Made by a program: the position numbers and the translations under genes. Below are positions 32,230 to 64,000 of a DNA stretch of 64,000 bases, one piece after another. Position 1 is the first letter of the stretch. Each line of letters opens with the position of its first letter. This DNA is from an uncultured Dehalococcoidales bacterium (lineage in GTDB: Bacteria > Chloroflexota > Dehalococcoidia > GIF9 > UBA5629): assembly GCA_964437795.1 (NCBI GenBank), contig CAYTIC010000008.1, forward strand, positions 61,407 to 125,406, written 5' to 3'. The notes under the pieces were generated by a model, which saw only the letters and a list, made by a program, of their open reading frames with translations, had not been told where the DNA came from and did no database searches.

Positions 32230-32239
32230 GGTAAGTCCA

Positions 32240-35600: not shown

Positions 35601-35661
35601 GTGTCACAGGGCGCCTGTGCTTAGCAAACTGAAACAGATTTAGTATAATATATGGTCTTGC

Positions 35662-35737: not shown

Positions 35738-35777
35738 AAGATCGATTAGCCGATCACTCAGATATGAACCAGGAGGT

Positions 35778-47789: not shown

Positions 47790-48877
47790 GATATGGCCTC
47801 CCCCGGGATATCGGACACGCCGGCTCCTTCGAAGGTAGCCATGTCCCGCATGAGGTTGATCGAACACTCCGCTAAAAATATGCCCAGCGCCGCCCCGGTG
47901 CCCTCGCCCAGGCGCAGGTCAAGCTCCAGCAGCGGCCTCAGTCCCAGGTGTTTCAGACAGGCGGTATGTCCCTTCTCCGCCGATAGGTGGGCCGCTATCA
48001 GGTAATTTTTAATCTGCGGGCAGATGCCCGCCGCTATAAGGGCCGCTGCGCCCGAGATAAAGCCGTCGATTACCACCGGTATGCGGTTGGCTGCCCCGGC
48101 TATCATGGCCCCGGCCAGGCCCCCTATCTCGAAGCCGCCCACTTTCTCCAGTACTCCCAGGGCATCGGCGGGATCGGGCCTGTTGACCGACAGGGCCTGC
48201 TCGATGATCTTGATCTTGTGCTCCAGCTGTTCATCCCCGATGCCTGTGCCGCGTCCCGTCACCTCCCGCACCGTTTTACCGGTCATAGCCGCCGTGATGG
48301 CGCTGGCTGACGTCGTGTTGCCGATGCCCATATCACCGGTACCGAGTATATCCAGGCCTGCTTTCAACTCGTTCTCAACTATCTCCCGGCCCGCCAGCAG
48401 ACTATTTATTGCCTGGGCCCGGCTCATAGCCGGACCGGCGCTCATATCGCCGGTGCCGAAATCAATCATTTTACAAACTATGCCTTCGTACGACGGAAGG
48501 CCGCCTATCACTCCCATATCCACGATGATCACGCGTGCCCCGGCCATCCGCGCCAGGACGTTGATGGCGGCGCCCCCCGCGGCAAAGTTGAGAGCCATCT
48601 GGCTGGTGACCTCCTGCGGGTAGAGGCTGACGCCGCGGGCAGCTACTCCGTGATCGGCGGCCATGGTGATGATGACCTTGTCTTTCATACGCGGGATGAC
48701 CTCACCGCGTATGCCGGCGATTTGCGACGCCAGGTCCTCCAGCGTGCCGAGGCTGCCGCGCGGCTTGGTCAGGCTGTTCAGCCTGCGAAAGGCAGCTTCC
48801 CGGAAGGCCTCGTCGGGAGGGCTAACCCGGCTGACCAGGTCCTGCAACTTCCGTACGGCGTCTATTTCAGCGCTCAA
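47786..48877 (-). CDS. cobT: Nicotinate-nucleotide--dimethylbenzimidazole phosphoribosyltransferase
   Basis: SLGTLEDLASQIAGI N-terminus, and the full-length family pattern. Confidence 0.85.
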   Translation of the reverse strand: MSAEIDAVRKLQDLVSRVSPPDEAFREAAFRRLNSLTKPRGSLGTLEDLASQIAGIRGEVIPRMKDKVIITMAADHGVAARGVSLYPQEVTSQMALNFAAGGAAINVLARMAGARVIIVDMGVIGGLPSYEGIVCKMIDFGTGDMSAGPAMSRAQAINSLLAGREIVENELKAGLDILGTGDMGIGNTTSASAITAAMTGKTVREVTGRGTGIGDEQLEHKIKIIEQALSVNRPDPADALGVLEKVGGFEIGGLAGAMIAGAANRIPVVIDGFISGAAALIAAGICPQIKNYLIAAHLSAEKGHTACLKHLGLRPLLELDLRLGEGTGAALGIFLAECSINLMRDMATFEGAGVSDIPGEAIS

Positions 48878-49398
48878 TACTCAATCCCTCTGCGCTGGTG
48901 TATCCCTTCTGAAAAGGGGTGCTTGATCATGAGCATCTCGGTAACAAGGTCGGCGCGCCTGACTATTTCCTGCGGGGCCTTGCGCCCCGTAAGTATCAGC
49001 TCGACGTTGGCCGGTTTCATTTTTAACAGGTCCAGTATCTGGGGCAGGCTGACCAGGCCCCGCCAGTGGGCGATGAAAATCTCATCCAGCACCACGACAT
49101 CGTATTTCCCTCCGCTGAGCGCGCTCACGGCGAAATCGTAGGCCTGCCGTGTTTCCCGCTGCAATTCCTCTTCGCTCTTCTTGAAAAGGTCGCCCTTGCC
49201 GAACTGGATGATCTCGAAGGGTTTGTACTTATCCGCGAAGATATGCTCTCCCCCCGGCTGGGTCTTGAGGAACTGGATGAAGATGACTTTTAAACCCTGC
49301 GCGGAAGCCCGCAGGGCCTGTCCCAGCGCGGCGGTGGTCTTGCCCTTGCCGTCGCCGGTATAAACCTGTACCAGCCCTTTAAAATCCTGTTCAGCCAT
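48874..49398 (-). CDS. cobO: Cob(I)yrinic acid a,c-diamide (corrinoid) adenosyltransferase
   Basis: VQVYTGDGKGKTTAALGQALRA P-loop of the CobA/CobO/BtuR family. Confidence 0.8.
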   Translation of the reverse strand: MAEQDFKGLVQVYTGDGKGKTTAALGQALRASAQGLKVIFIQFLKTQPGGEHIFADKYKPFEIIQFGKGDLFKKSEEELQRETRQAYDFAVSALSGGKYDVVVLDEIFIAHWRGLVSLPQILDLLKMKPANVELILTGRKAPQEIVRRADLVTEMLMIKHPFSEGIHQRRGIEY

Positions 49399-49434
49399 AT
49401 GACCCTCCGTAAGTAATATTGTACAACATGGACG

Positions 49435-50517
49435 TCAGCCCGCTTTCCCGGCCATCATTGAAATAGCCTTAACCAGCTTCTGACAGTCCCCCATCCGGCG
49501 CGGCGAAATACGCACGTAGGCCGGCAGGCCGAAGGACGAGCAGTCCCGCACCAGGAACCCTTTATCCAGCAGGCGGCTTTTAAAATCGGCGGCGTTTCCG
49601 ACCTGCATGAGGAAGAAATGGGTATCCGTAGAGATTATTTTGTATCCCAGAGCGGCCAATCTGCGCGCCAGGTAGGCGCTGCATTTCTGTATCCTGGCAT
49701 TGCTCTGCCGCATATATCCGTCAACCCCGACGGCTGCTATGCCCGCCTGCTGGGCAGGGGAGCTTACGTTCCACGGCGGCCGCACCTTTTCCAGGTTGCC
49801 TATGATGTCCCGGCAGGCCAGGCCATAACCCAGGCGCAGGCCGGCCAGAGCGAAGTCCTTGGTCATAGACCGGACGACTAAAACGTTAGGCTGGCCTATC
49901 AGTGCAGCGGCGCCGGTACTTTCCTGTGTGAACGCCAGGTAGGCTTCGTCAAGGATTACCAGTGTGTCCGGCGATGCCTTCACCAGCCTGTGCACGTCCT
50001 CCCCGGAGAGCAGTTGTCCCGTGGGATTATTGGGATTGCACAGGAAGACGGCCTTCGGGTTGTGTCCTCGAATGAATTCAGCAAACCCGCCCGCGTCCAG
50101 TTGGAAGTCACGGTCCTCGAGCAGGTGATATTTAATGATCTCGGCCCCGGCAATACGGCCGGACAGTTCGTATTCTCCGTAAGTCGGCGATGGGACGACA
50201 ACCCTGTCACCCGCCGCCAGGTAGGCCAGGGCGGCCAGCCTTATGATCTCTGTCGAGCCGTTGCCTGCTACGATGTTTTCAGGAGCCACGTCCAGGTTTT
50301 TCGAGAGGGCTTCAACCAGTTCGCTTGAATGGGTATCCGGGTAGGACTCGATATCCGCGTTACGCAGGGCGAGGCGGACCCCGGGAGGCGGTCCGTAGGG
50401 ATTGCAGCAGGTGCTGAAGTCCATAACCCCGCCGGCGCCTTTCAGCCCGGCATGGCCCGCTCCGCCGTGTTCAACGGGGCATAGGCTTTTGATATGGGAA
50501 TTAGCGTGCAAGGCCAA
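49435..50517 (-). CDS. cobD: L-threonine-O-3-phosphate decarboxylase (aminotransferase class I/II fold)
   Basis: PLP-dependent class I/II pattern. The CobD assignment is supported by its operon context with cbiB. Confidence 0.7.
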   Translation of the reverse strand: MALHANSHIKSLCPVEHGGAGHAGLKGAGGVMDFSTCCNPYGPPPGVRLALRNADIESYPDTHSSELVEALSKNLDVAPENIVAGNGSTEIIRLAALAYLAAGDRVVVPSPTYGEYELSGRIAGAEIIKYHLLEDRDFQLDAGGFAEFIRGHNPKAVFLCNPNNPTGQLLSGEDVHRLVKASPDTLVILDEAYLAFTQESTGAAALIGQPNVLVVRSMTKDFALAGLRLGYGLACRDIIGNLEKVRPPWNVSSPAQQAGIAAVGVDGYMRQSNARIQKCSAYLARRLAALGYKIISTDTHFFLMQVGNAADFKSRLLDKGFLVRDCSSFGLPAYVRISPRRMGDCQKLVKAISMMAGKAG

Positions 50518-51436
50518 TAAACACCTCTATAGCGGCGACAATGATCGCCCATATACCCGCTGATGTCAGCATCACGGTCTGCGATTGCGTGACTGCGCCG
50601 ATGCAAAGTCTGGCGTTGCCGCCGGTCAGTGTATACTCGCCGCTTTTTTTCAGTTCGATGCCCAGCGAGCCGGCCATGGAGCACATGGTCCAACCCGCGT
50701 TGGGGCTTGGTGTCCTTGCATGCTGCGCCAGCATGGTACGCCAGCTCCCGCCGGCATCAGCGCGGCAAAGGGCCGACGCGGCTACGATCAGCAGCGCGCT
50801 CAGCCTGGATGGGATGAAGTTGAGCAAGTCGTCCAGACGTGCGGTGAATTTCCCCGTATATTCCCAGCGGCCCCGGTACCCGATCATGCCGTCGAAGGTA
50901 TTTACAACGCGGTATATGATGGCCCCCGGCAAACCCAGGACGGCGAAATAGAAAAGCGGCGCGATGAAGCTGTCGCAAAGGTTCTCTGCGCAGGACTCGA
51001 CAGCCGCCGAAATGAGCTGCTCGTTTGTTAAATCTGAGGTGTCGCGGCTGACCAGCGCCCGTGCCTTCAACCTGGCTTCCGCCGGGTCGCTGAGGGGCAG
51101 GCACAGCTTTACGTCTTCCACCGCCTGCCAGAGCCCTCTCAGTGCGAATGTATTTTTCAGCAGGTATGCAGACAGCACTATATAGATTATCTGGTTGAGA
51201 CCGAGCAGGTATTCGAGGCCGAGGTAGAGCGGGACGGTTACTATGGCGCAGGTAAAAATGACCATGGCTGCGCCGTAAATGAATTGCCTTCGCGGACCTG
51301 ATAACGGCTCGAATTTAAGCTGTAGGGAGATGAGGTTGCCCAGCCAGGCCACGGGATGCCAGGAGTTGGGAGCCTCGCCCATCAGCGCATCCAGCAGCAG
51401 CGCTCCGCACAGTATATACAGCCCCGAAAGTTCCAC
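50501..51436 (-). CDS. cbiB: Adenosylcobinamide-phosphate synthase (membrane)
   Basis: CobD/CbiB membrane-protein family pattern. It overlaps the neighbouring genes, consistent with an operon. Confidence 0.8.
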   Translation of the reverse strand: MELSGLYILCGALLLDALMGEAPNSWHPVAWLGNLISLQLKFEPLSGPRRQFIYGAAMVIFTCAIVTVPLYLGLEYLLGLNQIIYIVLSAYLLKNTFALRGLWQAVEDVKLCLPLSDPAEARLKARALVSRDTSDLTNEQLISAAVESCAENLCDSFIAPLFYFAVLGLPGAIIYRVVNTFDGMIGYRGRWEYTGKFTARLDDLLNFIPSRLSALLIVAASALCRADAGGSWRTMLAQHARTPSPNAGWTMCSMAGSLGIELKKSGEYTLTGGNARLCIGAVTQSQTVMLTSAGIWAIIVAAIEVFIGLAR

Positions 51437-52233
51437 TATGCGCGCTCCACTTTTTTTACCGATGTGACCAGCGCTGTGGGCAATCCGTTGACGGGGTGCG
51501 AAAAGATGGTCACGTCGAGGCCGAAAGCCTCTCTGAGGGTGGGTGAGTCTATGACTTCCTGCGGCCTGCCCTCTTTATATATGGCGCCGTCCTTGAGCAC
51601 AATAATCCTGTCGCCGTATTGCGAGGCCAGGTTGATATCGTGAAGCGCTGCCACAATAGTCAGCCCCTTTTCCAGGCAGAGCTTTTTAAGGAAATCCAAT
51701 ATACCGGCCTGGTAATTTATATCCAGGTTGGCCGTGGGCTCGTCCAGCAGCAGAATGCCTGCCTCCTGTGCCAGCGAGCGGGCGATGAGCACACGTTGAC
51801 GCTCGCCGCCGGACAGCTGGTTGACGCGCCGCCCGGCCAGCCGGCCGGTCTCCGTAGCCTCCATGGCGTTTGCTGCGGCCAGGATGTCGCTGCTGCCCTC
51901 GTAGCGGAGCAGTCCCAGGTGAGGAGTGCGTCCCATCAGCACGATCTCCATGGCCGTGAAAAGCTCGGGCAGGAAGGCGCCCTGCGGCATCAGGGCTATG
52001 TTGAGGGCGATATGTGTGCGGCTGCAGCTGCCCAGGGACCGGCCGTCCAGCAGTACAGCGCCGCTGTATGGCCGCAGCAGTCTGCACATCCCTTTCAAAA
52101 GAGTGCTCTTGCCGGACCCGTTGGGGCCTATCACCGTTAGAAATTCACCGGGTCGCGTATTCAGAGTGATGTCGTGAAGCACAGCCCGCTCGCCGTATCT
52201 GAAACATGCTTTCTCAAGAGATATGACAGCCAT
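51436..52233 (-). CDS. btuD: ABC transporter ATP-binding protein, corrinoid/iron-siderophore type
   Basis: Walker A GPNGSGKST, signature LSGGERQRV and Walker B LLLDEP. Confidence 0.75.
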   Translation of the reverse strand: MAVISLEKACFRYGERAVLHDITLNTRPGEFLTVIGPNGSGKSTLLKGMCRLLRPYSGAVLLDGRSLGSCSRTHIALNIALMPQGAFLPELFTAMEIVLMGRTPHLGLLRYEGSSDILAAANAMEATETGRLAGRRVNQLSGGERQRVLIARSLAQEAGILLLDEPTANLDINYQAGILDFLKKLCLEKGLTIVAALHDINLASQYGDRIIVLKDGAIYKEGRPQEVIDSPTLREAFGLDVTIFSHPVNGLPTALVTSVKKVERA

Positions 52234-53294
52234 CAGAACACCGCCTTTTTCTTCTGATTGAGCAGGTAAAGGAAAAAGGGAGCGCCTATGATGGCGGTGA
52301 TGATACCTACCGGTATCTCGGCGGGCGCCATGATGGTCCGGGCGGCTGTGTCAGCCAGTATCAGGAAGGCTGCCCCGCCCAGCAGGGACAGTGGCAGCAG
52401 CAGGCGGTAGTCCGGTCCGCAGATCATCCTCACGGCGTGGGGTATGATGATACCTACAAAACCGATGGCGCCGCAGAAGCACACGGCCGCGGCCGTAGCC
52501 AGTGTGGCCGCTATTAATATAATTATCTTGGTACGCTCGACATTTATGCCCAGTTGTTCGGCCTGATCTTCATCCAGTTGCATCACATTGAGCGGGCGCG
52601 CCGCGAGCAGCAGCACTATCGCGCCTGCCAGTATATAGGGTGTCATCACAGCCACACGCCACCAGTCCGCCAGAGCGAAAGTGCCCAGCAGCCAGAACAC
52701 GATACCATGTACCTTGTCGTTCGAGATAATGAGGAGGTAGGAAGTGATCGATGCTAAAAATGCCCCGATAGCTACGCCGCCTAATATGAGTGTAGTGACG
52801 GGCAGCGTGCGGCCGGTCCTGGCGATGGAGTAGACCGCTGCCACGCTGAATATGGCGCCCAGGAAGGCCAGTACCGGTATCAGGGCGGCCGGCACGGCAG
52901 CCGGAAGCAGGAATCCGGCGACTGCTCCCAGGGCTGCACCCTGAGAAACGCCGGTAAGATAGGGATCGGCCAATGGATTGCGGAACATGCCCTGGTAGGC
53001 CGCGCCGGCCACCGCCAGCGCAGCGCCTGTGAGGCCGGCCATCAAAATGCGCGGCAGGCGGATATCCCAGATAATCGTATTTAACACGGAGGGGTCGGCT
53101 CCTGTATTAGCCGGGTCAAACAGCCTGGCCTGTAAAACAGCCAGGATATCCTGCAGGGGAATGGCAGTGCTTCCGGTCGTGACTGCCCATAAAGCCACGG
53201 CAGCAAGCACCATGATGGCCAGGATTATGGCCAGCCGGCCGCGGCGCACCCTGGTACGATGCAGGTCAAGTTCGCTTTTAAGTGCAGTTTCCAT
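52233..53294 (-). CDS. btuC: FecCD-family ABC permease (corrinoid). The likely start is METALK at 53294.
   Basis: Ten TM helices in the FecCD family pattern. Confidence 0.75.
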   Translation of the reverse strand: METALKSELDLHRTRVRRGRLAIILAIMVLAAVALWAVTTGSTAIPLQDILAVLQARLFDPANTGADPSVLNTIIWDIRLPRILMAGLTGAALAVAGAAYQGMFRNPLADPYLTGVSQGAALGAVAGFLLPAAVPAALIPVLAFLGAIFSVAAVYSIARTGRTLPVTTLILGGVAIGAFLASITSYLLIISNDKVHGIVFWLLGTFALADWWRVAVMTPYILAGAIVLLLAARPLNVMQLDEDQAEQLGINVERTKIIILIAATLATAAAVCFCGAIGFVGIIIPHAVRMICGPDYRLLLPLSLLGGAAFLILADTAARTIMAPAEIPVGIITAIIGAPFFLYLLNQKKKAVF

Positions 53295-53319
53295 CGTTAG
53301 ATTGATTTTCAGCAGTTGC

Positions 53320-54246
53320 TCATTGCTCAGGTTTATTGAAAAGATCGGGGTGCAGGAACGATGCAGTTTGTTCCAGGGCCGATACACAGCGCGGGCTGTG
53401 CCGGTATATCAGGTCACCGTTGATCTTATATACCCGGCCGTTTTTAACGGCGGACGTGTTGCTCATACGTGGGTCGGTCGTAACGAATTTCCACAATGGA
53501 TCGCCTGAGTTATCCATGCTGGTCGGCACGATGATGACCTGTGGATCCGCGCTGATTATAGATTCAAAGCTCATGGAGCTGTGGCCGTTGATGGCCGAGG
53601 CGACATTAGTACCTCCTGCCACGCGGATGATGTCATCGATCAGTGTGGAGTTGCCGGCCACCATCATGGGATCGTTCCAGATCATCAGTAATGTACGAGG
53701 GCGTTGACCGGGTGTCAGGCCGGCGGTTACCGCCGATACCGCGTCAATGCGTTTCTGCAATAACGCGGTGAGTGTCGCGGCAGCTTTGTCGGCGCCGGCA
53801 AGGCTGCCGGTCAGCGTGATGTCGCGTATTACGCCTTCCACCGTTTTGGGATAGATTGAAACCACGCGGAAGCCCATTTTCTGCAGCTGCGGCGCTACGC
53901 TCTTATTGTGTATCTCGGAGGCGAGCACCAGGTCGGGCCTGAGCGCCACCGTCTTCTCGATGTCTACCGTGCTGAATCCTCCCACCCGGGCCTTGTTTTT
54001 AGCTGCCGGCGGATAGTTACAGTATTCCGTCACGCCCACCAGCCTGTCTTCCAGCCCCAGCGCGTAGACTATCTCGGTGTTGGCCGGCGCCAGGGATATT
54101 ATGCGCTCAGCGGGAGGCGCCGGTGCTATGGTACTGCCCGAGTCGTCGATCAGGTCCGCCGGTGCGGCGGGAACGGAGCATGCGCAAACGCAGAACAGAG
54201 CGGTCAGCACCAGGTAGCCGAAGGATTTGCCCCAGGTATTTTTCAT
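53320..54246 (-). CDS. btuF: Periplasmic corrinoid-binding protein (class III SBP) with a lipoprotein signal
   Basis: ISLAPANTEIVYALGL...LRPDLVL class III SBP signature. It is the first gene after the riboswitch. Confidence 0.7.
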   Translation of the reverse strand: MKNTWGKSFGYLVLTALFCVCACSVPAAPADLIDDSGSTIAPAPPAERIISLAPANTEIVYALGLEDRLVGVTEYCNYPPAAKNKARVGGFSTVDIEKTVALRPDLVLASEIHNKSVAPQLQKMGFRVVSIYPKTVEGVIRDITLTGSLAGADKAAATLTALLQKRIDAVSAVTAGLTPGQRPRTLLMIWNDPMMVAGNSTLIDDIIRVAGGTNVASAINGHSSMSFESIISADPQVIIVPTSMDNSGDPLWKFVTTDPRMSNTSAVKNGRVYKINGDLIYRHSPRCVSALEQTASFLHPDLFNKPEQ

Positions 54247-54262
54247 TTCTCACCCCTGCAAT

Positions 54263-54450
54263 TAATAAAAAACCCCTGCTCCGGGAGCAGGGGGATCGTT
54301 AATAAATAACAAATCCCGCCTCCTTACTCCGCGGAGGCAGCTTTTCAGCAGGGTGGCGTTCTGACTTTCACAGTAGGCGGGACTGTACCGGTATTGCGCC
54401 GGTTTGCACTCCTTTTAAGCCTGCGGTCACCCGCGGGCGCCCTGCTTCAA
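54263..54450 (-). ncRNA. Cobalamin (B12) riboswitch with an intrinsic-terminator expression platform
   Basis: The minus strand reads ...AGUGCAAACCGG...CAGUCCCGCCUACUGUGAAAGUCAGAACGCCACCC. This matches the conserved GGUGnAAnUCC / CCCGCcACUGU / B12-box AGUCAGgAgaCCkGCC elements. The hairpin CCCCUGCUCC-cgg-GGAGCAGGGG followed by UUUUUAUU at 54295-54263 precedes the btuF start. Confidence 0.6.
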
Positions 54451-54519
54451 ATATTCAATTGGCCTAAAGCATATAGTTTTGGCCGCCCGATGTCAAAATA
54501 TTCCCGTACGGCATATTCG

Positions 54520-54549
54520 TTGCTATTGCGGGAACCTTAACGCTATAAT
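54520..54549 (+). promoter_or_regulatory. Candidate sigma70-type promoter (TTGCTA-18nt-TATAAT) for the glycosylation locus
   Basis: Hexamers read directly. A GAGG site and the ATG at 54569 follow closely. Confidence 0.35.
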
Positions 54550-54568
54550 CTATCGCGAGGTCAGATAT

Positions 54569-57500
54569 ATGGCGTTAAAAAAGATACCGTCCTGGGTCAT
54601 CGTCCTGTTATTGCTCATAGTAATCGTGTCTCTGGCGCTTTGGCTGAGGGTCGTGCTCCCGTACAACCAGGTGTTTGTCGGGGACTGGGTAAAGATGACG
54701 GGTGTGGACGCGTATTATTACATGCGGCTGGTCGATAATCTGATGAAGCACTTCCCGCATGTAACACAGTTCGATCCGTATTTGCAGTTTCCGGGTGGTT
54801 GGAATACAGGCGGGTCCCCCGATTTCTTCGCCTATTTCATGGGGGGTATTATCTGGCTGGTCAGCCTGGGACAGGCTAACCAGCATACTGTGGATGTAAT
54901 ATCGGTATATATACCTCCTTTGCTGGCGGTACTGACCATACTGGCCGTATTTGTTATCGGGGTACTGCTGGGCAGCAAGTGGCTGGGGTTGATGTCTGCA
55001 GGGTTGCTGGCCATCATCCCGGGGGAGTTTCTCAACAGGTCGCTCCTCGGCTATACCGACCATCACATCGCCGAGGTATTGTTCTCCACCTGCATCATGC
55101 TTTTTGTGTTCCTGGCGATAAGGGCTGGACGGGGAAGGCGGTTTGAGGATTCGATCAAGGGTGGCTGGCAGGGTATAGGGAAACCTGTCCTGTTCGGCAT
55201 ACTGGCCGGGTTATTTATGGGCGTTTATATGCTGACCTGGGCCGGTGCGCTGATGTTCGCCCTGATCATATTTATATTTATCGTGGTTCAGGCCGTTATC
55301 GACCATCTGAATGACCGTCCGTCCGATTATCTGGGTATTCTGGGCTTTTGCATGTTCGGGACGGCCCTGGCACTGTACCTGCCGTGGGCGCGCGGTACGA
55401 TGACTATACTGGCCCTTGTTGCCGGTCTACTAGTTTCCGTGCTTCTGCCTTTTCTCTCAAGGTTGATGAACGGCAGGCGACTGAAGACGTTTTACTATCC
55501 TGTTGCGATCGTGGGGCTGGCTGTACTGGGCACATTTCTGGTGGCGCTGATAAGCCCGTCGCTATTACAGGATATGCTGGGCAGCCTGGCCAGCATTTTT
55601 GTCTGGCCGTTCGGGACAACCGTGATGGAGATGCAGCCCCTGCTTATACAGCAGGGCGATTTCACCTTTGCCGTAGCCCTCGGCAACTATATGCTGGCCT
55701 TTTTCGTCAGCCTTGTGTGCATAGGCGTGTTGTTTTACCAGGTGATAAAACAGGGGCAGCCGGATAAGGCGCTGCTCTTGATCTGGAGCATAATAATACT
55801 CTTGTCGGCGCTGTCCATGAGGCGCTATGCCTATTATTTTGCGGTGAACGTGGCATTGCTTACGGGCTATCTCTGCTGGATCCCGCTTAACGCCCTGATC
55901 AAGAAAAGAGAAGCCTCATCCGCGGCGGTGGCAGCTGTTAAAGCTTCTTCCAGAGGGAAAAAGGCCTCGGCAAAGCGGGCCCGGCAGGCGAAGCCTGCAA
56001 AGCAGGGCAACTACGCCATTGTAATACTGCTGGCCGCCATTCTGCTGCTGGTTTATTACCCTAACATCGGGCCGATGCCCGACGGCCAGAAGCCTGCTAT
56101 CGACCTCGCCACGCGGCCGTTATTCGCTCCCTCAAATGCCTGGTGTGAAGCTGTGGACTGGCTGCGGACAAGTACCCCCGAGCCTTTCGGCAAGTCGGAT
56201 GCTTACTATGGATTATATAAGCCCGTCAAAGCGCAGGGAGGCTTTGAATACCCCGCCGGCGCCTACGGGACCCTGGCGTGGTGGGATTACGGCTACTGGA
56301 TAGCCCGCATCGGCCAGCGTCCTCCTTTGACGAATCCCGGGACCGGCGACATCGGGGCCGCATACTTTTTTACCGCCCAGGATGGGCCTTCGGCTGCGCG
56401 GTCAATAAACAATTTTGGTACACGTTACGTTGTCGTTGACAACGAGATAGCCGCCTATGAAGGCAAATTCTATGCGCTGGCAGCGCTGAGCGGTTCAAGC
56501 TACACCAGGTATTACGACTTATTCATAAAGAAACAGAATAATCAGTATGTATCGTCCATGCTTTTCTACCCGGAATATTACCGCACTACAGTTGCACGGC
56601 TGTATAACTTCGACGGCAAGGCCGTGGCACCGGACAGCGTAAGTGTTATCGAGTTCAGGATGGTCACAGGGCAGGACGGCGCCAGGTATAAGGAGATAAT
56701 CGATGAGAAGGAATTCGGCTCCCTGGAAGCCGCTCAAAAGTTCATCAGCGAGAACAAAAACAAGAATTATATTATAGCGGGGAAAGATGTCAACGTAAGT
56801 CCTGTGCCGCTGGACGAGCTAAAGGACTTCAGCCTCGTGTACAGCTCGAACAGGAAGGTGTCCACAGGTTCAAAAACTCAGCCCAATATCAAGATATTTG
56901 AGTATAAGAGAGATGCAGTTCCGCTTACGGGCGATTGGAACGGTGATAAAAAGGCGGAGCTCGGCCTCTGGCAGTCCGATGGCTATTTCAAGCTGGATAA
57001 AAATGGCGATGGAAGTCCGGTGAAAGTCGGTCCGTTCGGATATTCGACCGATGTCCCGCTTGTGGGAGACTGGAATGGGGATGGCAGGGATGAGATCGGA
57101 GTTTACCGTCCATCCGATTTGTGTTTTTACCTGGATTACAACGGAAACGGCGCCTGGGATGGGGAAAACGGGGATAAAAAGTTAGGGCCCTTCGGCTTCG
57201 CTTTTACTGACATCCCGGTAGCGGGTGACTGGAATGGGGACGGCACATGCGAAATCGGGGTATGGCATCATGCGCAGGGTGAAACGGACTGCTATTTTTA
57301 TCTCGATGTCAACGGAGACGGGAAATGGGATCCCGCAAACAAAGACGTTAAAATCGGCAAGCTGGGAAAGGCAGGTGACGTGCCGATTGCCGGCGATTGG
57401 AACGGGGACAGCCGGGATGAAGTGGGTGTCTGGGAACCGTCGAGCCGGTATTTCTACCTTGAGAAAGATGGGAAAGGCGTTTCGGACGCTGCCGGGGAAA

Positions 57501-57688
57501 ATCTAAAGCTCGGGCCGTACGGTGAGAGCTACGATACGCCTGTAAGGGGCAACTGGGACGGCGGCAATAAGGACCTGGTAGGTATGTGGGACCCGTATAC
57601 GAGGCTTTTCCATTTGAATATAGGCGGGGATGGAAAATGGGAAGATAACCGGAGCAATGTCCTGGCGAATTCATTGAGTGGTCAATAG
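54569..57688 (+). CDS. STT3/AglB/PglB-type oligosaccharyltransferase with a C-terminal FG-GAP-like repeat (beta-propeller) domain
   Basis: A 13-TM N-terminal domain with a DxD-like loop (GVDAYYYMRLVD) and the diagnostic WWDYGYWI motif. The C-terminal roughly 260 aa contain five or more tandem G-D-W-N-G-D-G-x-x-E-x-G-V-W / D-x-N-G-D-G repeats. Confidence 0.7.
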   Translation: MALKKIPSWVIVLLLLIVIVSLALWLRVVLPYNQVFVGDWVKMTGVDAYYYMRLVDNLMKHFPHVTQFDPYLQFPGGWNTGGSPDFFAYFMGGIIWLVSLGQANQHTVDVISVYIPPLLAVLTILAVFVIGVLLGSKWLGLMSAGLLAIIPGEFLNRSLLGYTDHHIAEVLFSTCIMLFVFLAIRAGRGRRFEDSIKGGWQGIGKPVLFGILAGLFMGVYMLTWAGALMFALIIFIFIVVQAVIDHLNDRPSDYLGILGFCMFGTALALYLPWARGTMTILALVAGLLVSVLLPFLSRLMNGRRLKTFYYPVAIVGLAVLGTFLVALISPSLLQDMLGSLASIFVWPFGTTVMEMQPLLIQQGDFTFAVALGNYMLAFFVSLVCIGVLFYQVIKQGQPDKALLLIWSIIILLSALSMRRYAYYFAVNVALLTGYLCWIPLNALIKKREASSAAVAAVKASSRGKKASAKRARQAKPAKQGNYAIVILLAAILLLVYYPNIGPMPDGQKPAIDLATRPLFAPSNAWCEAVDWLRTSTPEPFGKSDAYYGLYKPVKAQGGFEYPAGAYGTLAWWDYGYWIARIGQRPPLTNPGTGDIGAAYFFTAQDGPSAARSINNFGTRYVVVDNEIAAYEGKFYALAALSGSSYTRYYDLFIKKQNNQYVSSMLFYPEYYRTTVARLYNFDGKAVAPDSVSVIEFRMVTGQDGARYKEIIDEKEFGSLEAAQKFISENKNKNYIIAGKDVNVSPVPLDELKDFSLVYSSNRKVSTGSKTQPNIKIFEYKRDAVPLTGDWNGDKKAELGLWQSDGYFKLDKNGDGSPVKVGPFGYSTDVPLVGDWNGDGRDEIGVYRPSDLCFYLDYNGNGAWDGENGDKKLGPFGFAFTDIPVAGDWNGDGTCEIGVWHHAQGETDCYFYLDVNGDGKWDPANKDVKIGKLGKAGDVPIAGDWNGDSRDEVGVWEPSSRYFYLEKDGKGVSDAAGENLKLGPYGESYDTPVRGNWDGGNKDLVGMWDPYTRLFHLNIGGDGKWEDNRSNVLANSLSGQ

Positions 57689-57737
57689 TCCCGGTGAAGC
57701 GGGAGGATGGATTAATATCCGGTGGGTTTTCTGTCAT

Positions 57738-59225
57738 ATGAGCAATCGACCGATAACGGATCCTCAAAAATTTGCCGGCGATATCTTTTGGGTCGCCGCT
57801 TCAAATTTTGCCGTGCCCCTGGTTGGATTAATTACGCTCCCCGCCATGACGAAGAACTACGCAGATGAAGTATATGCCGTGTGGATGCAGTCTATTTTGG
57901 CGGTCGGGCTCCTGGCATTTATCGTAAGTTTATACCTGGGATACTCTGTAGTAAGGTTCCTGGCTGCTGAGGATGATAAAGCAGTGCGGAGGCGCGCACT
58001 GGGAGCAATATTGTGGCCCACTCTTGCAGTCTCATCCCTGTCCATCGTTATTTCGATATTGCTCCGGCAGTGTTTCTCTCAAATTCTGTTCGGCAATTCT
58101 GATTATGCTTACCTCGTCCCGTTAGTTTTTATCTGGTCCGCGGCTGAGGCCGTATTTTCAATTTTAGTCGCCTATTTGCTGGCAAGGCGCAGGATCAAGG
58201 CCATGTCCATTATCCAGATAGGCCTGGCAGTGTATAGAATGGCTGTTATAGTCATACTGGCAACATTGGGATACGGGCTGGCGTGGATTATCGGATTTGT
58301 CATAGCTGGCATAATACTTGCCGTCATAGTCATTTTTTGGATGATCGTGAAGGAGGTAGGCTGTCCTCTGCCTGCCATAAAAGGATTAAATGGCTATCTG
58401 GCCCTCAGCATTCCGTTGATACCAAGCGGGATCTTTTTCTGGGTTATCAGTGCCAGCGACCGTTTTTTTATCACAAATATCCTCAGCTTGAGCCAGACCG
58501 CCATTTACGCCGCGTCTTTTGCCATAGGTAGTTTGATATTCTTTTTTTATTATCCCATCCAGTTGGTGCTGTTACCTGTTTTATCCAGGCTGTGGGAGCA
58601 AAAGGAGTCTGCAAAGGTCAGGAACTACCTGGAATATTCGAACAAGTTATTTGTGACAGTGGCCATCCCGTCAGCCGCGGGTCTCTTCGTTCTTTCACAG
58701 CCGATACTGGCAATTCTCACCACACCTGACTATTTAGCCGGGGGCGGCCTGGTTCTGTTGATCGCCCTGGCAACCATACTGAACGGTTTATATCAAATTA
58801 ACTGTTCAGTAATCTTTCTGGTCAAGCAGACCAGATGGCTGATGCCTATTATAGCTACAGCCGCAATTGCCAATGTCGGTCTTAACCTGGCTTTGATTCC
58901 ACTTCTCGGCGTAACGGGAGCCGCAATTGCCGCCGTTATAGCTTATTTGATTCTGTCGGTCACCATAACGGTTTGGGCGAGAAAGGTAACCGGCTTCACC
59001 GTAAGTATTAAATTTATGGTCAAGGTTGTCGTGGGCGCGTTGTTGATGGCCGGGATAGTCAGTTTCATTCAAATAGGCGGTATATTGGGTATAATCGCTG
59101 TAGCTGCTGCCGGCGTGATCATATTCGCATTATGGATGTGGCTGACAAGGGCTTTTGTACCGGAGGATATCAAGCTCATCAGGGAGATTGCTGCCGGGTT
59201 AAGGCAGGGCACACTGCTGAGATGA
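57738..59225 (+). CDS. Wzx-type oligosaccharide flippase (polysaccharide biosynthesis protein; MOP superfamily)
   Basis: About 14 TM helices with the MATE-like/Wzx pattern. The start ATG at 57738 (MSNRPI) sits in a CATATG context. Confidence 0.65.
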   Translation: MSNRPITDPQKFAGDIFWVAASNFAVPLVGLITLPAMTKNYADEVYAVWMQSILAVGLLAFIVSLYLGYSVVRFLAAEDDKAVRRRALGAILWPTLAVSSLSIVISILLRQCFSQILFGNSDYAYLVPLVFIWSAAEAVFSILVAYLLARRRIKAMSIIQIGLAVYRMAVIVILATLGYGLAWIIGFVIAGIILAVIVIFWMIVKEVGCPLPAIKGLNGYLALSIPLIPSGIFFWVISASDRFFITNILSLSQTAIYAASFAIGSLIFFFYYPIQLVLLPVLSRLWEQKESAKVRNYLEYSNKLFVTVAIPSAAGLFVLSQPILAILTTPDYLAGGGLVLLIALATILNGLYQINCSVIFLVKQTRWLMPIIATAAIANVGLNLALIPLLGVTGAAIAAVIAYLILSVTITVWARKVTGFTVSIKFMVKVVVGALLMAGIVSFIQIGGILGIIAVAAAGVIIFALWMWLTRAFVPEDIKLIREIAAGLRQGTLLR

Positions 59226-59261
59226 TTAAATGTGGAAGCGATAATGCTGTTTGAGAAATAA

Positions 59262-60536
59262 ATGCCCAAGTTAGCCATTATTGATCAATACGTTAGCGCC
59301 GGTGGGGTGGAACGTTTCATCCACGGCCTTGTTGGGGGAATTCTGGAGCAGTCCGAATTCCAGGACTGGGACGTTACAATAATTTTGAATAGATTTAACA
59401 CTGCCGGAAATGACGTAAGGTGGCCGGAACACCTGGCCGGTTCAAATTTACAACTACGTTATTTGTTCGACGGTAAATGGGGAAAATATATTAGAAGGAT
59501 TGTCGAACCGGGAAGGATATGGGGTATACCGGGGACAGGGATTATCAGATCAGGTTTATTTTTATTGGTTGCCCGGTTGTGGATTGAATCGGAATGCCGG
59601 CGGCAGAGATATGATGTAATCTATTTTCCGGGCCCCTATCTAATCGGTTGCCCGAATATTCCCATGCCCCTAGTGACGACCATGCATGATTTCAACTGGA
59701 AGCACAAGGATCTGCATTCGGTATCTTTCCTGGGCAGCCAATTGTTGGAACTGCAAATACCCGGATGGCTTCGCAAATGCTTTCGGGCCGTTGTGTCCAG
59801 CGAATTTATTGCCGGCGAATTAAAACATTTTTATCCATCATTCGGCAGTAAGGTTCGAACGGTGCGGGTTGGGACACCTTCGGCGAATCTTATTCCCACA
59901 GATGGACAATTGCAGGCTTATAAGGTAAATGCGGAGCTGCCGCCCCAATTTCTTTTGACGGTTGGCTGGATCATGCCTCATAAAAACCAGAAGGTGCTGC
60001 TCGAGGCTTTGCATGAACTGAGAAATAGAGGTATTAAAATCCCTATTATTTTCACGGGACCTAACAGTGCGAACCTCCGACCCGGCGTTAAAGAACCGAA
60101 TCCGAAATATATGGAAGAGACAATTCAATTGGCGGATCGCCTCGGTTTAAAGTACGGTCAGGATTATTTTGGCCTGGGCTATGTGAGTGACTTCGATCTG
60201 GATTGTCTCTACAGGTTGTCCAGGGCGCTAATAGCCCCTGCACTGTATGAGGCAGGCAGTTTTCCTATTCTCGAGGCCATACGGGCGCGCTGTCCGGTAC
60301 TCTGTTCAAGAATTCCTCCTTACATGGAGCAGGATAATCTGCTGGGCAACAATTTTTGGGTATTTAATCCAAATGATGCCTCTTCAATTGCTGAAAATAT
60401 TGCGCAGGTATTGTCCAACCCTGAGCTTGCCGGTGACAGGGCAGCGAAGGCCGCGGAAATGCTCCGGGAGAACTATAATTGGTCCAGAGCCGCTGCCGGA
60501 TACTTAGACATATTCCGAAGCGCACTCGAGAAATAA
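59262..60536 (+). CDS. Glycosyltransferase family 4 (GT-B, retaining)
   Basis: The C-terminal GT1/GT4 motif EAGSFPILEAIRARCPVLCSRIPP (E-x7-E-like). Confidence 0.7.
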   Translation: MPKLAIIDQYVSAGGVERFIHGLVGGILEQSEFQDWDVTIILNRFNTAGNDVRWPEHLAGSNLQLRYLFDGKWGKYIRRIVEPGRIWGIPGTGIIRSGLFLLVARLWIESECRRQRYDVIYFPGPYLIGCPNIPMPLVTTMHDFNWKHKDLHSVSFLGSQLLELQIPGWLRKCFRAVVSSEFIAGELKHFYPSFGSKVRTVRVGTPSANLIPTDGQLQAYKVNAELPPQFLLTVGWIMPHKNQKVLLEALHELRNRGIKIPIIFTGPNSANLRPGVKEPNPKYMEETIQLADRLGLKYGQDYFGLGYVSDFDLDCLYRLSRALIAPALYEAGSFPILEAIRARCPVLCSRIPPYMEQDNLLGNNFWVFNPNDASSIAENIAQVLSNPELAGDRAAKAAEMLRENYNWSRAAAGYLDIFRSALEK

Positions 60537-60566
60537 TAGTGATTTATAGAAGTCAGGGATAAATTA

Positions 60567-61913
60567 ATGGTTGAACATCCATTGAACATTGTCGTAGCAG
60601 CGGAGACCATCCCGGCGCTAAACTGCGGCCTGGGATATTTCCTGTTTAACGGAATCACAAAATTGGCTGCTGCAAAACCGTCCTGGCAATTCACAGTGGT
60701 TGCCCCATCGAGTTTTAAGGAACTATCCGATATCCATCAGCCCAATATTAAAATTTTATATTGGGACCTTGGTTTTCTCAGGAGAACAGTCATATCGGTT
60801 CTAAAGACTCTAATGCCGTCGACCAGGCCCGATATAACAGAACAATTCAGCTTTGCGGTGAGCCTTTTATCCCGTCGCATGCCGTTCCGCCGGATGCGGG
60901 CCAGTATGGGTGATCTCAAGTCCATTTACGGATCATTCAAAAATGTGGACCTGGTATGGATGCCGCACTATTCGATCATTCAGCCGGACCAGTTCGCGGC
61001 GTCAGAAAACCTGAGCACCGTAGCATGTCCAATACTGCTGACAATGCATGATATTCACCCTGTATTTTTCCCGGATAGTTGGAGCCGGGAGAGTATGCAT
61101 AGTTTCTGGAACTCATTTGTACCCTTCGCGCGTAACTGTAAAAGAATAATGACTCACTCCGAGTTCCAGAAGGAAATGATGGTTAAACATCTCGGGATTA
61201 ATCCTGAAGTAATTAAAGTTGTATCGATCCCATCGCTGATCGATTTTGAAATAGTAAATGGGAAATCCAGCAGTAGTGAGATAAAGGAGGTTTTGGAACG
61301 GTTCGGCATTACTGCTCCTTTCGTCTTTTATCCCGGGGCGGGCGGGCACATACACAAGAACCACATGCGTTTGTTTATGGCATGGGCTGAGCTGTATAAA
61401 ACATTGGGTAGCACCTGCCCGACACTTGTTTGTACAACAAAGGGCCATCTCTGGCCGGCTCTCAAGGAACAGATAAATGCGCTGGGAATATCGGATAAAG
61501 TGATATTCACAGATACGGTAGACACGGATACGCTGATTAAACTATACGCCGGCTGTGCCTTTGTAATCGTGCCGACCCTCTTCGAAGGAGGTGGCAGCGG
61601 CCCCGTGGTGGAGGCGTTGCTGGCCGGGAAGCCCGTTGCCTGTTCGAATATTGCGCCTATCCTGGAGCAACTGCGTGCTTTAAACCTGGATTTAGCCGAG
61701 CGTTACCTTGAGTTCTTCGATCCTTTGTCAGTGGATTCAATCGTTCGCACAACGTTGTCGGTGATTAACAGGCTGCCTGAGCTTGAAAGCAGGGAGCCTG
61801 TAGATGGCAGGCGGGTGTTGATCAGGATGGAATCATTGTGGGGCGAATGGACATCTGCGTATACGGAGCAAATGATGGAGCTTACTGCGAAAGAATCTGA
61901 AAGGCGGTTATAA
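60567..61913 (+). CDS. Glycosyltransferase (GT4-like)
   Basis: A GT-B C-terminal domain pattern (FEGGGSGPVVEALLAGKPVACSNIAP). Confidence 0.6.
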   Translation: MVEHPLNIVVAAETIPALNCGLGYFLFNGITKLAAAKPSWQFTVVAPSSFKELSDIHQPNIKILYWDLGFLRRTVISVLKTLMPSTRPDITEQFSFAVSLLSRRMPFRRMRASMGDLKSIYGSFKNVDLVWMPHYSIIQPDQFAASENLSTVACPILLTMHDIHPVFFPDSWSRESMHSFWNSFVPFARNCKRIMTHSEFQKEMMVKHLGINPEVIKVVSIPSLIDFEIVNGKSSSSEIKEVLERFGITAPFVFYPGAGGHIHKNHMRLFMAWAELYKTLGSTCPTLVCTTKGHLWPALKEQINALGISDKVIFTDTVDTDTLIKLYAGCAFVIVPTLFEGGGSGPVVEALLAGKPVACSNIAPILEQLRALNLDLAERYLEFFDPLSVDSIVRTTLSVINRLPELESREPVDGRRVLIRMESLWGEWTSAYTEQMMELTAKESERRL

Positions 61914-61918
61914 ATAGT

Positions 61919-62596
61919 ATGAGCGGATCACATCAAGGTATATCGGTAAAATCCCGTAATATCCTGATACTGGGCGCCGGCGGCATGGCACGGGAAGTCG
62001 GCTGGCTGATCAACGATATAAACAGGGCAGGCCGGGAATCGTGGAATCTTGTCGGGTATATGGAGCATGGGGGCGCGCGGAAAGGATTATTAATGAATGG
62101 GATACCCATCGTCGGACCTGATGAAATTCGTCAGTATCTTCCTGATCTATATGCGGTTATTGCTATTGGTGATCCTAAAATTAAAGAACGGGTTGTCACG
62201 GAGGCGGAGGTATTGGGCTGCAAATTTGCCACGCTGATACATCCAAGCGTGAGATATGATCCGTCGACTGTTGTGATTGCTCCAGGGTCTATAATTTGTG
62301 TTGGCAGCATTATTACAGTAAACGTAACTATAGGTATGCATGTTATTGTTAATAACGATTGCACTGTAGCTCATGATTGTATAATAGAAGACTATGTTAC
62401 CCTTTCCCCCGGTTGTCATGTTTCGGGACATAATATCTTGCGCCGGAGTTCATTTTTGGGGACGGGATCCGTAACAGCGGAAAAATGCGAAATAGGCGAT
62501 CATGCAATTATCGGCGCGGGGGCAGTGGTGGTGTGTAATATACCCGGCAATGTCACCGCGGTAGGGGTGCCTGCAAAACCTGTAAATAATAAATAG
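61919..62596 (+). CDS. Sugar N/O-acetyltransferase of the PglD/NeuD hexapeptide-repeat family
   Basis: The N-terminal Rossmann-like ILILGAGGMAREV followed by left-handed beta-helix hexapeptide repeats. Confidence 0.7.
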   Translation: MSGSHQGISVKSRNILILGAGGMAREVGWLINDINRAGRESWNLVGYMEHGGARKGLLMNGIPIVGPDEIRQYLPDLYAVIAIGDPKIKERVVTEAEVLGCKFATLIHPSVRYDPSTVVIAPGSIICVGSIITVNVTIGMHVIVNNDCTVAHDCIIEDYVTLSPGCHVSGHNILRRSSFLGTGSVTAEKCEIGDHAIIGAGAVVVCNIPGNVTAVGVPAKPVNNK

Positions 62597-62689
62597 CAAC
62601 TGATTGTTTCATGTAATATTATTGCGAAAAGTGCTAAGGTGGGCCTTCATTGGGAGGCGTGAAATGATTGTCTCAACAGGGTATTAGAT

Positions 62690-63808
62690 ATGCGAAAAAA
62701 GATTTCAGTGGCAAGTCCGTCATTTGCCGGAAATGAAAAAAAATATGTGAAGGACTGTATGGATACCGGCTGGATATCCTCCGCCGGCAAATATGTGGGG
62801 GAATTCGAGACAAAGTTCGCTGATTTTTGTAACGTTAAAAATGCATTGACCTGCTCAAATGGCACAGTTGCGCTGCATCTTGCGCTCAGGGCATACGATA
62901 TTGGCCCTGCTGATGAAGTTATTGTTCCGACGTTAACATATGTTGCCACGGCAAACGCTGTGACATATTGCGGGGCCGTTCCCGTGTTCGTGGATATCGA
63001 TCCGGACACCTGGAACATCGATGCGGGGAAAATCGAGGAAAAAATCACCCCGAAGACCAAAGGTATAATTGTTGTTCATATTTATGGACATCCGGTGGAT
63101 ATGGACCCGATATTAAAAATAGCGGAAAAACATAATCTTTTTGTTATTGAGGACGCAGCAGAGGCACATGGAGCTCTCTACAAAAATCGAGTCGCCGGCG
63201 GTATTGGGGATATCGGGACCTTCAGCTTTTTCGGCAACAAGCTGATCACAACAGGCGAGGGCGGGATGATAACAACCGATAATGACGAATTGGCTGCCAA
63301 GATGCGGTTGTTGAAAGGGCAGGGCGTTGATCCCGATCGTAGATACTGGTTTCCCGTAGTCGGCTATAACTACAGGATGACAAACATACAGGCAGCTATC
63401 GGATTGGCCCAATTAGAGAAAATAGAGTGGCACATTAAGAGGAGAAGGCAGGTCGCCGATTTATACTACAAGCATTTGGGCGGCCTTGCCGATTTTATAA
63501 TTCTGCCAGTGGAAAAAGAATGGGCCAGGAATTCATTCTGGATGTTCACCATAATCCTGAAAGATACCGTTAAGATGTCCCGGGACGGGTTCATGGATGA
63601 GCTGCAAAAGCTCGGGATTGAAACGAGGCCTGTTTTCCATCCCATGCATGTCTTGCCGCCGTACAGGGAGCTTCAGAAAGGTGACCATTTCCCTGTTGCG
63701 GATAAGGTTAGCAGCCGGGGTTTAAATATACCCACTCACGCCAACCTCAGTGCAGCGGATATTGAATATGTGTGTGACGCTGTCAGGAAGCTTCTGTCCG
63801 GCAGTTAA
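62690..63808 (+). CDS. DegT/DnrJ/EryC1/StrS-family PLP-dependent sugar aminotransferase (PglE-like)
   Basis: TLTYVATANAV, DAAEAHGA and the lysine motif FSFFGNKLITTGEGGM. Confidence 0.85.
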   Translation: MRKKISVASPSFAGNEKKYVKDCMDTGWISSAGKYVGEFETKFADFCNVKNALTCSNGTVALHLALRAYDIGPADEVIVPTLTYVATANAVTYCGAVPVFVDIDPDTWNIDAGKIEEKITPKTKGIIVVHIYGHPVDMDPILKIAEKHNLFVIEDAAEAHGALYKNRVAGGIGDIGTFSFFGNKLITTGEGGMITTDNDELAAKMRLLKGQGVDPDRRYWFPVVGYNYRMTNIQAAIGLAQLEKIEWHIKRRRQVADLYYKHLGGLADFIILPVEKEWARNSFWMFTIILKDTVKMSRDGFMDELQKLGIETRPVFHPMHVLPPYRELQKGDHFPVADKVSSRGLNIPTHANLSAADIEYVCDAVRKLLSGS

Positions 63809-63840
63809 GCAGGAGAACAAGAGAAGTAGTAATAGTCACC

Positions 63841-64000
63841 ATGCATATTGTAGTGGATGCCCTTCCCGTTAACGCCAGGCCGTGGACCGGCATATCTCTC
63901 TACATTCTCAATTTGCTGAAGTCCCTGGCCGAATTTGATAAAAAAAATGAATACACTGTTTATTGCATGAGATATAACCTCCGTGATTTTGGTATTGAAA
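63841..64000 (+). CDS. Glycosyltransferase (GT4 N-terminal domain), truncated by the window end
   Basis: MHIVVDALPVNARPWTGISLYILNLLKSL is typical of a GT4 N-terminus. Partial. Confidence 0.45.
   Translation, partial: MHIVVDALPVNARPWTGISLYILNLLKSLAEFDKKNEYTVYCMRYNLRDFGIE

Follow-up and report, generated by a model that had tools for sequence, protein, structure and literature searches.

The 64,000-nucleotide stretch studied here, part of the genome of an uncultured Dehalococcoidales bacterium (assembly GCA_964437795.1, contig CAYTIC010000008.1; the whole stretch is termed the window), carries from 54.5 kb to its end a compact set of genes headed by an oligosaccharyltransferase (OST) of the archaeal AglB type. 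We consider that this set is probably an AglB-anchored locus for N-linked protein glycosylation, a function read from the identities of its genes. In the scheme that we favour, GT4-family glycosyltransferases would build up an oligosaccharide on the cytoplasmic side, on a polyprenyl phosphate carrier, with GDP-N-acetylperosamine, made from GDP-4-keto-6-deoxymannose by a perosamine synthase (Per) and a PglD-family acetyltransferase, as one of the donors; a Wzx-like protein would flip the lipid-linked glycan; and AglB, its active site outside the membrane, would transfer the glycan en bloc to the asparagine of N-X-S/T sequons in exported and surface proteins. The locus is real, correctly delimited at its left and truncated at its right, where the window ends at position 64000. 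The original prediction, made from the sequence alone, was of a pgl-like system making a bacillosamine-like glycan; on the class of OST and on the sugar, our analysis points elsewhere.

The AglB-type oligosaccharyltransferase

The family assignment of the OST is clear. It matches NCBIfam model TIGR04154 ('oligosaccharyl transferase, archaeosortase A system-associated') at 571.8 bits (E 2.8e-171) against a curated cutoff of 450, and the Pfam models STT3 (PF02516; 62.3 bits, cutoff 24.5, E 8e-17) and AglB_core-like (PF22627; 59.8 bits, cutoff 27, E 3.9e-16). The top match among PDB sequences is AglB-L of Archaeoglobus fulgidus (AfAglB-L; 3WAJ/5GMY, E 3.1e-51, residues 41-671 of the query), in an alignment of about 630 residues that takes in the WWDYG, DK, DxH and TIXE motifs; the next is human STT3B, at E 5e-4, and no PglB chain appears at E<=1 among all PDB sequences. 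Comparison of folds gives a similar order. An AlphaFold2 model built with 67 homologues (mean predicted local distance difference test score, pLDDT, 85.3; predicted template modelling score 0.81) has a GT-C fold, with a multi-pass membrane domain and a periplasmic catalytic core, to which solved AglB is nearest: Foldseek ranks AfAglB-L first (7E9S/3WAK/5GMY, E 8e-32 to 6e-28, with 7E9S at 7.9e-32), yeast and human STT3 second (E 9e-18 to 5e-13) and PglB 16th to 19th (E 8e-12 to 6e-10). By sequence family and by modelled fold, then, the OST is classed as archaeal AglB-type and not PglB-type, and the pgl-like label does not hold for it. Neither the window OST nor any of the 120 Dehalococcoidia-type homologues listed has the AglB_L1 peripheral domain (PF18079), which nearly every listed Archaeoglobi homologue does have; this domain marks the AglB-L subtype only, not AglB overall.

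The open reading frame (ORF) spans 54479-57688. Its start is most likely the ATG at 54569, judging from the GAGG Shine-Dalgarno sequence that precedes it and a TATAAT-like box upstream, in agreement with a database twin of 1039 residues (P0001). Counted from this ATG, the first acidic motif is represented by D47 in GVDAYY, DxH by D164-H-H166 together with E169, the TIXE motif of external loop 5 by T351-V-M-E354, WWDYG by W571-W-D-Y-G575, and the DK motif by D624 and K633. Solved structures of AglB, PglB and STT3 tie these motifs to catalysis or sequon binding. Nearly all the motif residues are invariant in the 67 homologues, W571, Y574 and D624 being conserved in at least 90%, while mean column identity in the same alignment is only 44%; in an alignment of 17 sequences they are likewise invariant or at least 90% conserved. 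The original call of an STT3-family OST with its catalytic residues is borne out, since DxH/E and WWDYG are present and conserved and no loss of DxD or WWDYG residues is seen. From its sequence, the enzyme looks active, with its catalytic apparatus intact.

Beyond the catalytic core lie about 250 extra C-terminal residues, made up of five 'GDWNGD' FG-GAP/VCBS-like repeats. Pfam FG-GAP_3 detects them at E 6.8e-4, under its cutoff; the model renders the region as beta structure, at pLDDT mostly 85-94, and Foldseek matches it to the PVL lectin 4UP4 (E 1.6e-3). The repeats are predicted to be all-beta and to resemble an integrin-like beta-propeller lectin. Homologues fall into two length classes, of about 780 residues (without repeats) and about 1040 residues, and repeats are found in about one sixth of the homologues listed. 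A protein of 789 residues is 74% identical to the window OST, and one relative (locus L083; GCA_028716085.1, JAQUQM010000002.1, 10001-15501) carries a long aglB of 1051 residues, with the repeat extension, in tandem with a short one of 778 residues. The existence of two length classes, the 74%-identical short form and the long/short tandem together argue that the repeat domain is readily gained and lost. The closeness of the tandem paralogues in a neighbour-joining tree points to a lineage-specific duplication, possibly one that divided specificity between the two copies.

Cassette genes and the predicted sugar

On the plus strand, six complete ORFs lie head to tail with a seventh that runs off the end of the window (Table 1); the intergenic gaps are operon-like, at -11 to 93 nt, and each of the complete ORFs has a strong family match in Pfam or NCBIfam. 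The gene list, its order and the tight same-strand grouping behind the OST are thus much as originally described, except that the last gene, given as another GT4, is a 53-codon fragment which has no Pfam match, and no homologue in the 88 loci fetched.

Table 1. Features of the probable glycosylation locus and its left boundary, in window coordinates
Feature	Position	Strand	Basis
AdoCbl-II (B12) riboswitch	54346..54426	-	Rfam RF01689, 38.1 bits (gathering score 36.5)
Promoter-like site, TTGCTA-18-TATAAT, 20 nt 5' of the aglB ATG	54520..54549	+	Consensus match only
AglB-type (archaeal-type STT3) oligosaccharyltransferase, 1039 aa	54569..57688	+	TIGR04154, Pfam, PDB, Foldseek
WWDYG catalytic and sequon-binding motif, residues 571-575	56279..56293	+	Alignment
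Five FG-GAP/VCBS-like 'GDWNGD' repeats, residues 788-1039	56930..57685	+	Pfam (below cutoff), repeat positions, model
MOP-superfamily Wzx/AglR-like flippase	57678 (alternative ATG 57738)..59225	+	Pfam
Glycosyltransferase GT4a	59262..60536	+	Glycos_transf_1
Glycosyltransferase GT4b	60567..61913	+	Glyco_trans_1_4
PglD/NeuD/VioB-family N-acetyltransferase	61919..62596	+	TIGR03570; PglD_N and Hexapep
DegT-family aminotransferase, predicted GDP-perosamine synthase (Per)	62690..63808	+	DegT, E 1.2e-132; match to 3BN1
Partial ORF, 53 codons, cut by window end	63841..64000	+	No family match

No more than 50 nt separate the start of the putative flippase gene from the end of aglB. It scores above cutoff with Polysacc_synt_3 (41.2 bits, E 1.5e-10), in keeping with its first description as Wzx, and with Polysacc_synt (31.4 bits), MurJ being below cutoff. 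GT4a matches Glycos_transf_1 at E 2.2e-20, and GT4b gives family matches at E 2.8e-10 to 3.9e-11, the latter with Glyco_trans_1_4; searches of the PDB sequences with the two glycosyltransferases returned no matches. An identical copy of GT4b is present on a 2.7-kb Logan contig that lies wholly inside the window.

The nature of the sugar is suggested chiefly by the aminotransferase, which had been taken as PglE-like. It is 58% identical (212/365 residues) to the GDP-perosamine synthase of Caulobacter crescentus (3BN1; 489 bits, E 7.5e-146), against 200 bits for PglE (1O61), 198 for WbpE and 150 for PseC; in NCBIfam its highest-scoring model is that of the GDP-sugar LegC family, with a score under the cutoff. 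Following up the nearest homologues of GT4b brought to light two metagenomic clusters, L087 and L088. The first contains orthologues of GT4a (53% identical), GT4b (51%), the acetyltransferase (68%) and Per (64%); the second has GT4b (47%) and Per (59%), a distant match to GT4a (28%) and, instead of an acetyltransferase of the PglD family, one of the GNAT type. Both have a GDP-mannose 4,6-dehydratase gene (GMD; PF16363) directly after the aminotransferase gene and a Wzm/Wzt-type ATP-binding cassette (ABC) exporter; in the stretch fetched, neither shows an OST. The likeness of the aminotransferase to Caulobacter Per and the pairing of its orthologues with GMD lead us to predict N-acetylperosamine, not bacillosamine, as the sugar. 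The best reading of these sequences is a route from GDP-mannose through GDP-4-keto-6-deoxymannose and GDP-perosamine to GDP-N-acetylperosamine, and the dehydratase is expected just past the window end, which falls 190 nt beyond the aminotransferase gene.

The acetyltransferase scores 180.5 bits with TIGR03570 (cutoff 160.8) and has PglD_N and Hexapep domains, so that its placement in the PglD family stands; its likeness to PglD itself is slighter, at 64 bits, below VioB and the acetyltransferase domain of Neisseria PglB (111 bits each) and PerB (67.5). Its predicted role is that of a perosamine N-acetyltransferase acting on a 4-amino-4,6-dideoxyhexose. The original prediction also took these genes as the complement for a bacillosamine-like lipid-linked glycan, but the scanned window ORFs include neither a PglF-like dehydratase nor a priming enzyme like PglC, nor PglK. 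Genes of PglC or WecA type were not seen in the window or among the five annotated relatives considered below; in two of these relatives GT2 genes stand beside aglB, an arrangement which, as a speculation, would fit the euryarchaeal route by way of a monophosphate carrier.

A fixed aglB gene with variable neighbours

The close relatives are represented by five Pfam-annotated neighbourhoods (L080-L085), whose AglB proteins are 53-77% identical to the window OST. To the left, wherever that flank is present on the contig, all five have the same B12/cobalamin salvage operon, divergent from aglB, and its gene order is kept in relatives with AglB 53-74% identical. A He_PIG surface protein precedes the operon in relatives, in L080 and L084 at the same position as in the window. 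To the right, aglB directly abuts a glycan cassette in all five, with different content each time. The sets seen include GT87, Wzx, GT2, epimerase, DegT, GT4 and UDP-sugar dehydrogenase; GT2, GT87, methyltransferases and dTDP-sugar genes; a second aglB with GT4, methyltransferases, radical SAM and Wzx; and a set resembling WbpA/B/D/E. Close orthologues of the window Wzx, GT4 and acetyltransferase were found beside AglB in none of 79 loci, and distant DegT matches in 8 of them, an absence which is in line with a variable cassette. Even so, a BLAST panel of low sensitivity detects at least one glycan gene within 10 kb of aglB in 28 of 53 remoter bacterial loci, and at least three in 12. Within the window, the proportion of guanine plus cytosine (GC) falls from 0.59 in the cobalamin operon through 0.53 in aglB to 0.47-0.48 in the cassette. 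The pattern is that of an exchangeable, lower-GC glycan cassette behind a conserved OST, and resembles both the aglB-anchored islands of archaea and the O-antigen loci of bacteria.

Two further features of these neighbourhoods were observed. The WbpA/WbpB/WbpD/WbpE-like set (UDP-sugar dehydrogenase, GFO/IDH/MocA oxidoreductase, hexapeptide acetyltransferase and DegT) lies beside aglB at L085 4952-9027 and also in L002, L018, L025 and L059, so that it recurs across several Dehalococcoidia loci; this route leads to 2,3-diacetamido-2,3-dideoxy-uronic acids, sugars of Methanococcus N-glycans and of Pseudomonas O-antigen. A GT87 gene (PF09594), encoding a GT-C enzyme dependent on polyprenyl-phosphate-sugar, comes right after aglB on the opposite strand in three relatives (L080 13228-14556, L082 13141-14418, L084 13080-14366) and is absent from the window. 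By analogy with AglS, which adds a sugar at the outer face in Haloferax, GT87 may do likewise.

The left boundary of the glycosylation locus is the AdoCbl-II riboswitch, accompanied on the minus strand by a terminator-like hairpin at 54293-54273 found by sequence scan. The riboswitch heads, and serves, the divergent operon btuF-btuC-btuD-cbiB-cobD-btuR-cobT-cobS-cobU (Pfam; minus strand, 46350-54426), a complete set for cobalamin salvage and uptake, so that the divergence from a B12 riboswitch region already pointed out in the original prediction is as described. Control of the glycosylation genes by the riboswitch was considered and rejected, because the riboswitch lies on the other strand.

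Candidate acceptors are encoded 8-13 kb upstream, on the minus strand between 41338 and 46199. One is a BNR/sortilin-like protein of 880 residues with a signal peptide, a Pro/Ser/Thr-rich stalk, a C-terminal membrane anchor and 6 sequons; the other is a He_PIG (Ig-like) protein of 723 residues with a signal peptide, a membrane anchor, a proline-rich tail and 7 sequons. In neither is there an obvious PGF motif at the terminal membrane anchor. They are candidate S-layer or glycoprotein substrates.

Several results weigh against protein glycosylation as proposed here. Sequons in these two proteins are not enriched over shuffled sequences (z 0.0 and 1.6). The acetyltransferase matches VioB and Neisseria PglB better than PerB, which leaves its acceptor sugar uncertain. 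No priming transferase, 4,6-dehydratase or nucleotide-sugar pyrophosphorylase is found within the window, which ends at 64000. About half of the 53 remoter bacterial loci show no glycan gene near aglB, as judged with the low-sensitivity BLAST panel. Lastly, elsewhere the perosamine module goes with a Wzm/Wzt exporter and no visible OST, and in such contexts it makes free polysaccharide.

This last point underlies the strongest of the alternatives, that the cassette makes a perosamine surface polysaccharide, O-antigen- or capsule-like, or an S-layer anchor of the Caulobacter kind, independently of AglB, which would then be a mere neighbour supplied with its glycan from elsewhere. Perosamine synthesis is classically an O-antigen pathway, in Caulobacter, Brucella, Vibrio cholerae O1 and Escherichia coli O157, and lower GC with variable cassette content is typical of O-antigen and capsule loci. 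We nevertheless think this explanation unlikely. The ABC exporter of L087 and L088 is replaced here by a Wzx-like flippase almost contiguous with aglB; no Wzy, Wzz or other chain-length regulator, or ligase, is found among the scanned window ORFs; and the junction of aglB with a cassette recurs in all five close relatives, one of which has two tandem aglB genes at the cassette head. A Campylobacter pgl-like system, in which a PglB-type OST would transfer a di-N-acetylbacillosamine glycan made by PglF, PglE and PglD homologues, might draw on the PglD_N domain and PglD match of the acetyltransferase, on the membership of PglE and the aminotransferase in the same DegT family, and on the WWDYG motif of the OST, but it is improbable: for its OST part it is already largely refuted by the TIGR04154 score and by the place of PglB below AglB and STT3 in the comparisons of sequence and fold, the aminotransferase scores far higher with Per than with PglE and its orthologues pair with GMD, and homologues of PglF, PglC and PglK are wanting within the window. 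Still less credible is recruitment of the AglB homologue to acceptors other than proteins, for example a lipid or surface polymer, or its survival as a non-functional relic, for although other GT-C enzymes (ArnT, PMT) do appear as weaker fold matches and the host is a bacterium without archaeal context, the retention of the WWDYG, DK, metal-binding and acidic residues amid a mean identity of 44% argues for selection on peptide-asparagine glycosylation, and the family has many members, retained in hundreds of metagenome-assembled genomes (MAGs).

Distribution, significance and relation to known systems

Homologues of the OST number in the hundreds among Dehalococcoidia MAGs. A protein search with the OST returned 406 homologues at E<=1e-10; those with names come from Dehalococcoidia or Chloroflexi MAGs and bear the name given to TIGR04154 by the Prokaryotic Genome Annotation Pipeline. 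A pattern scan covering one genome for each GTDB species gave 343 confirmed stretches, of which the best 68 are all bacterial and mostly from Dehalococcoidia or Dehalococcoidales. Remoter AglB-like genes, 25-37% identical to the window OST (L038, L040, L041, L043, L047, L054, L057, L060, L061, L064, L067), occur in Phycisphaerae/Planctomycetota, in Acidobacteriota (Bryobacterales, Vicinamibacteria, Solibacteraceae) and in one Chlorobiaceae MAG, with few BLAST-detectable glycan genes around them.

The rough neighbour-joining tree (44 sequences, 669 columns), which was built without Halobacteria, Methanomicrobia or PglB and from which we claim no donor lineage, puts all bacterial sequences, the remoter ones together with those of Chloroflexota, in one clade, a bipartition recovered in 100/100 bootstraps. 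The nearest archaea in this tree are the sampled Archaeoglobi AglB-L, 26-28% identical to the window OST over conserved columns; the AglBs of TACK, DPANN and Asgard archaea share 18-21% identity with it and fall on the other side of a 100/100 split. This picture agrees with an earlier phylogenetic study, in which a few bacterial Stt3/AglB homologues were nested among Euryarchaeota and at least two transfers from archaea to bacteria were inferred (Lombard 2016, PMC4973528). The distribution also parallels that of Chloroflexota archaellum clusters, which have been traced to Methanotecta in a preprint that does not mention AglB (10.1101/2025.02.02.636118).

Public records already carry machine annotations of the family, and one phylogenetic study has remarked on bacterial homologues of AglB. 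A full-text literature search combining Dehalococcoid* or Chloroflex* with AglB, oligosaccharyl* or N-glycosylation gave no paper discussing AglB in Dehalococcoidia, and as far as we have found there is no functional or comparative study of it; the initial remark that such systems are little described in Chloroflexi is in keeping with this. Papers on Dehalococcoidia stress an envelope without peptidoglycan, formed of S-layer or glycoprotein.

To our knowledge, every experimentally characterised bacterial N-oligosaccharyltransferase is of the PglB type (Campylobacterota, some Desulfobacterota). The locus described here belongs to a second, large bacterial OST lineage, archaeal AglB-type and concentrated in Dehalococcoidia, whose envelope is already archaeon-like: it lacks peptidoglycan, has an S-layer and, in certain members, bears an archaellum gained by horizontal transfer. 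If active, the system would explain how organohalide respirers and subsurface bacteria build and vary a glycoprotein surface, and would be one more example of the passage of an entire envelope function from archaea to bacteria. Glycoengineering would gain new OSTs, possibly with other donor or sequon specificity, including a natural OST-lectin fusion. Because the anchor is fixed while the cassette varies, the hypothesis can be put to a direct test.

A broader synthesis can be drawn, which we hold only tentatively and rate as rather doubtful as a whole. Peptidoglycan-less, S-layered Dehalococcoidia might run a general, archaeal-style N-glycosylation acquired from an Archaeoglobi/Methanotecta-type euryarchaeon, the same donor as reported for the archaellum clusters; S-layer and surface proteins would receive strain-variable glycans from cassettes swapped behind the fixed aglB; the carrier might be monophosphate-linked, as in Euryarchaeota; in the long isoform, the FG-GAP propeller would represent a lectin-like accessory domain new to OSTs; and, with the related AglB-like genes of Planctomycetota and Acidobacteriota included, bacterial N-glycosylation would have a second lineage, widespread and so far overlooked.

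The remainder of the window is bacterial, with an extracytoplasmic function (ECF) sigma factor, a STAS protein, HtrA and an EmrB-type pump. The host is a Dehalococcoidia-like bacterium, in accordance with the Chloroflexi-like genome first suggested. Some other features deserve record. A low-GC island (0.39-0.49) at 1271-20000 lies beside a tRNA cluster (Val, Leu, Arg, Val; 1271-1597) and holds a tyrosine integrase (11747-13021), a PrimPol/AAA_25 replicase-like gene (8967-10775), a MADS2-like DNA methyltransferase (4873-7575; 370 bits, below the cutoff of 720) and a Thoeris pair, ThsA-Macro (13055-13987) and ThsB-TIR (13984-14526). The island has the appearance of a mobile element that has integrated and carries defence genes. 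At 30296-31588, on the minus strand, is a DsrK/HmcF/TmcB-like iron-sulfur protein, with 270 bits on the DsrK model (below the cutoff of 400), which is probably a heterodisulfide-reductase-like electron-transfer subunit; the adjoining ORF, 31585-32289, has no family match. The 5' end of the ORF at 35652-36236 overlaps a tRNA-Ala (35662-35737), an artefact of mechanical ORF calling, and the true start of this DUF1805 gene is probably further downstream.

Three known systems offer the closest comparisons. With the clusters for N-acyl-perosamine O-polysaccharides (Caulobacter, with Per 3BN1 and PerB 4EA7; Brucella; V. cholerae O1; Wzm/Wzt export), the locus shares its predicted Per and the module GT4-GT4-acetyltransferase-Per(-GMD) common to L087 and L088; in the place of the ABC exporter, however, it has a Wzx-like flippase together with an AglB OST, and GMD is not in the window. 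With the pgl systems of Campylobacter jejuni and C. lari (PglB 3RCE/5OGL) it has in common a bacterial STT3-family OST beside GT4s, a DegT aminotransferase and a PglD-family acetyltransferase, and would follow the same logic of assembly on a lipid, flipping and en bloc transfer. Its OST, however, is from another branch, a Wzx-like flippase takes the place of the ABC transporter PglK, the aminotransferase is Per-like, implying a GDP-sugar, and not PglE, and neither PglC nor PglF is seen in the window. With euryarchaeal AglB, represented by A. fulgidus AglB-L (3WAJ/5GMY/7E9S), the OST shares its TIGR04154 family, catalytic motifs and fold, and the agl islands of archaea, like this locus, cluster a MOP-family flippase-like gene and variable glycosyltransferase and sugar genes with the OST. 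It departs from the Archaeoglobi enzymes in its bacterial host, in its low identity to them, in lacking PF18079 and in its five FG-GAP-like repeats; and the carrier here is presumably undecaprenyl phosphate, where that of archaeal AglB is dolichyl phosphate.

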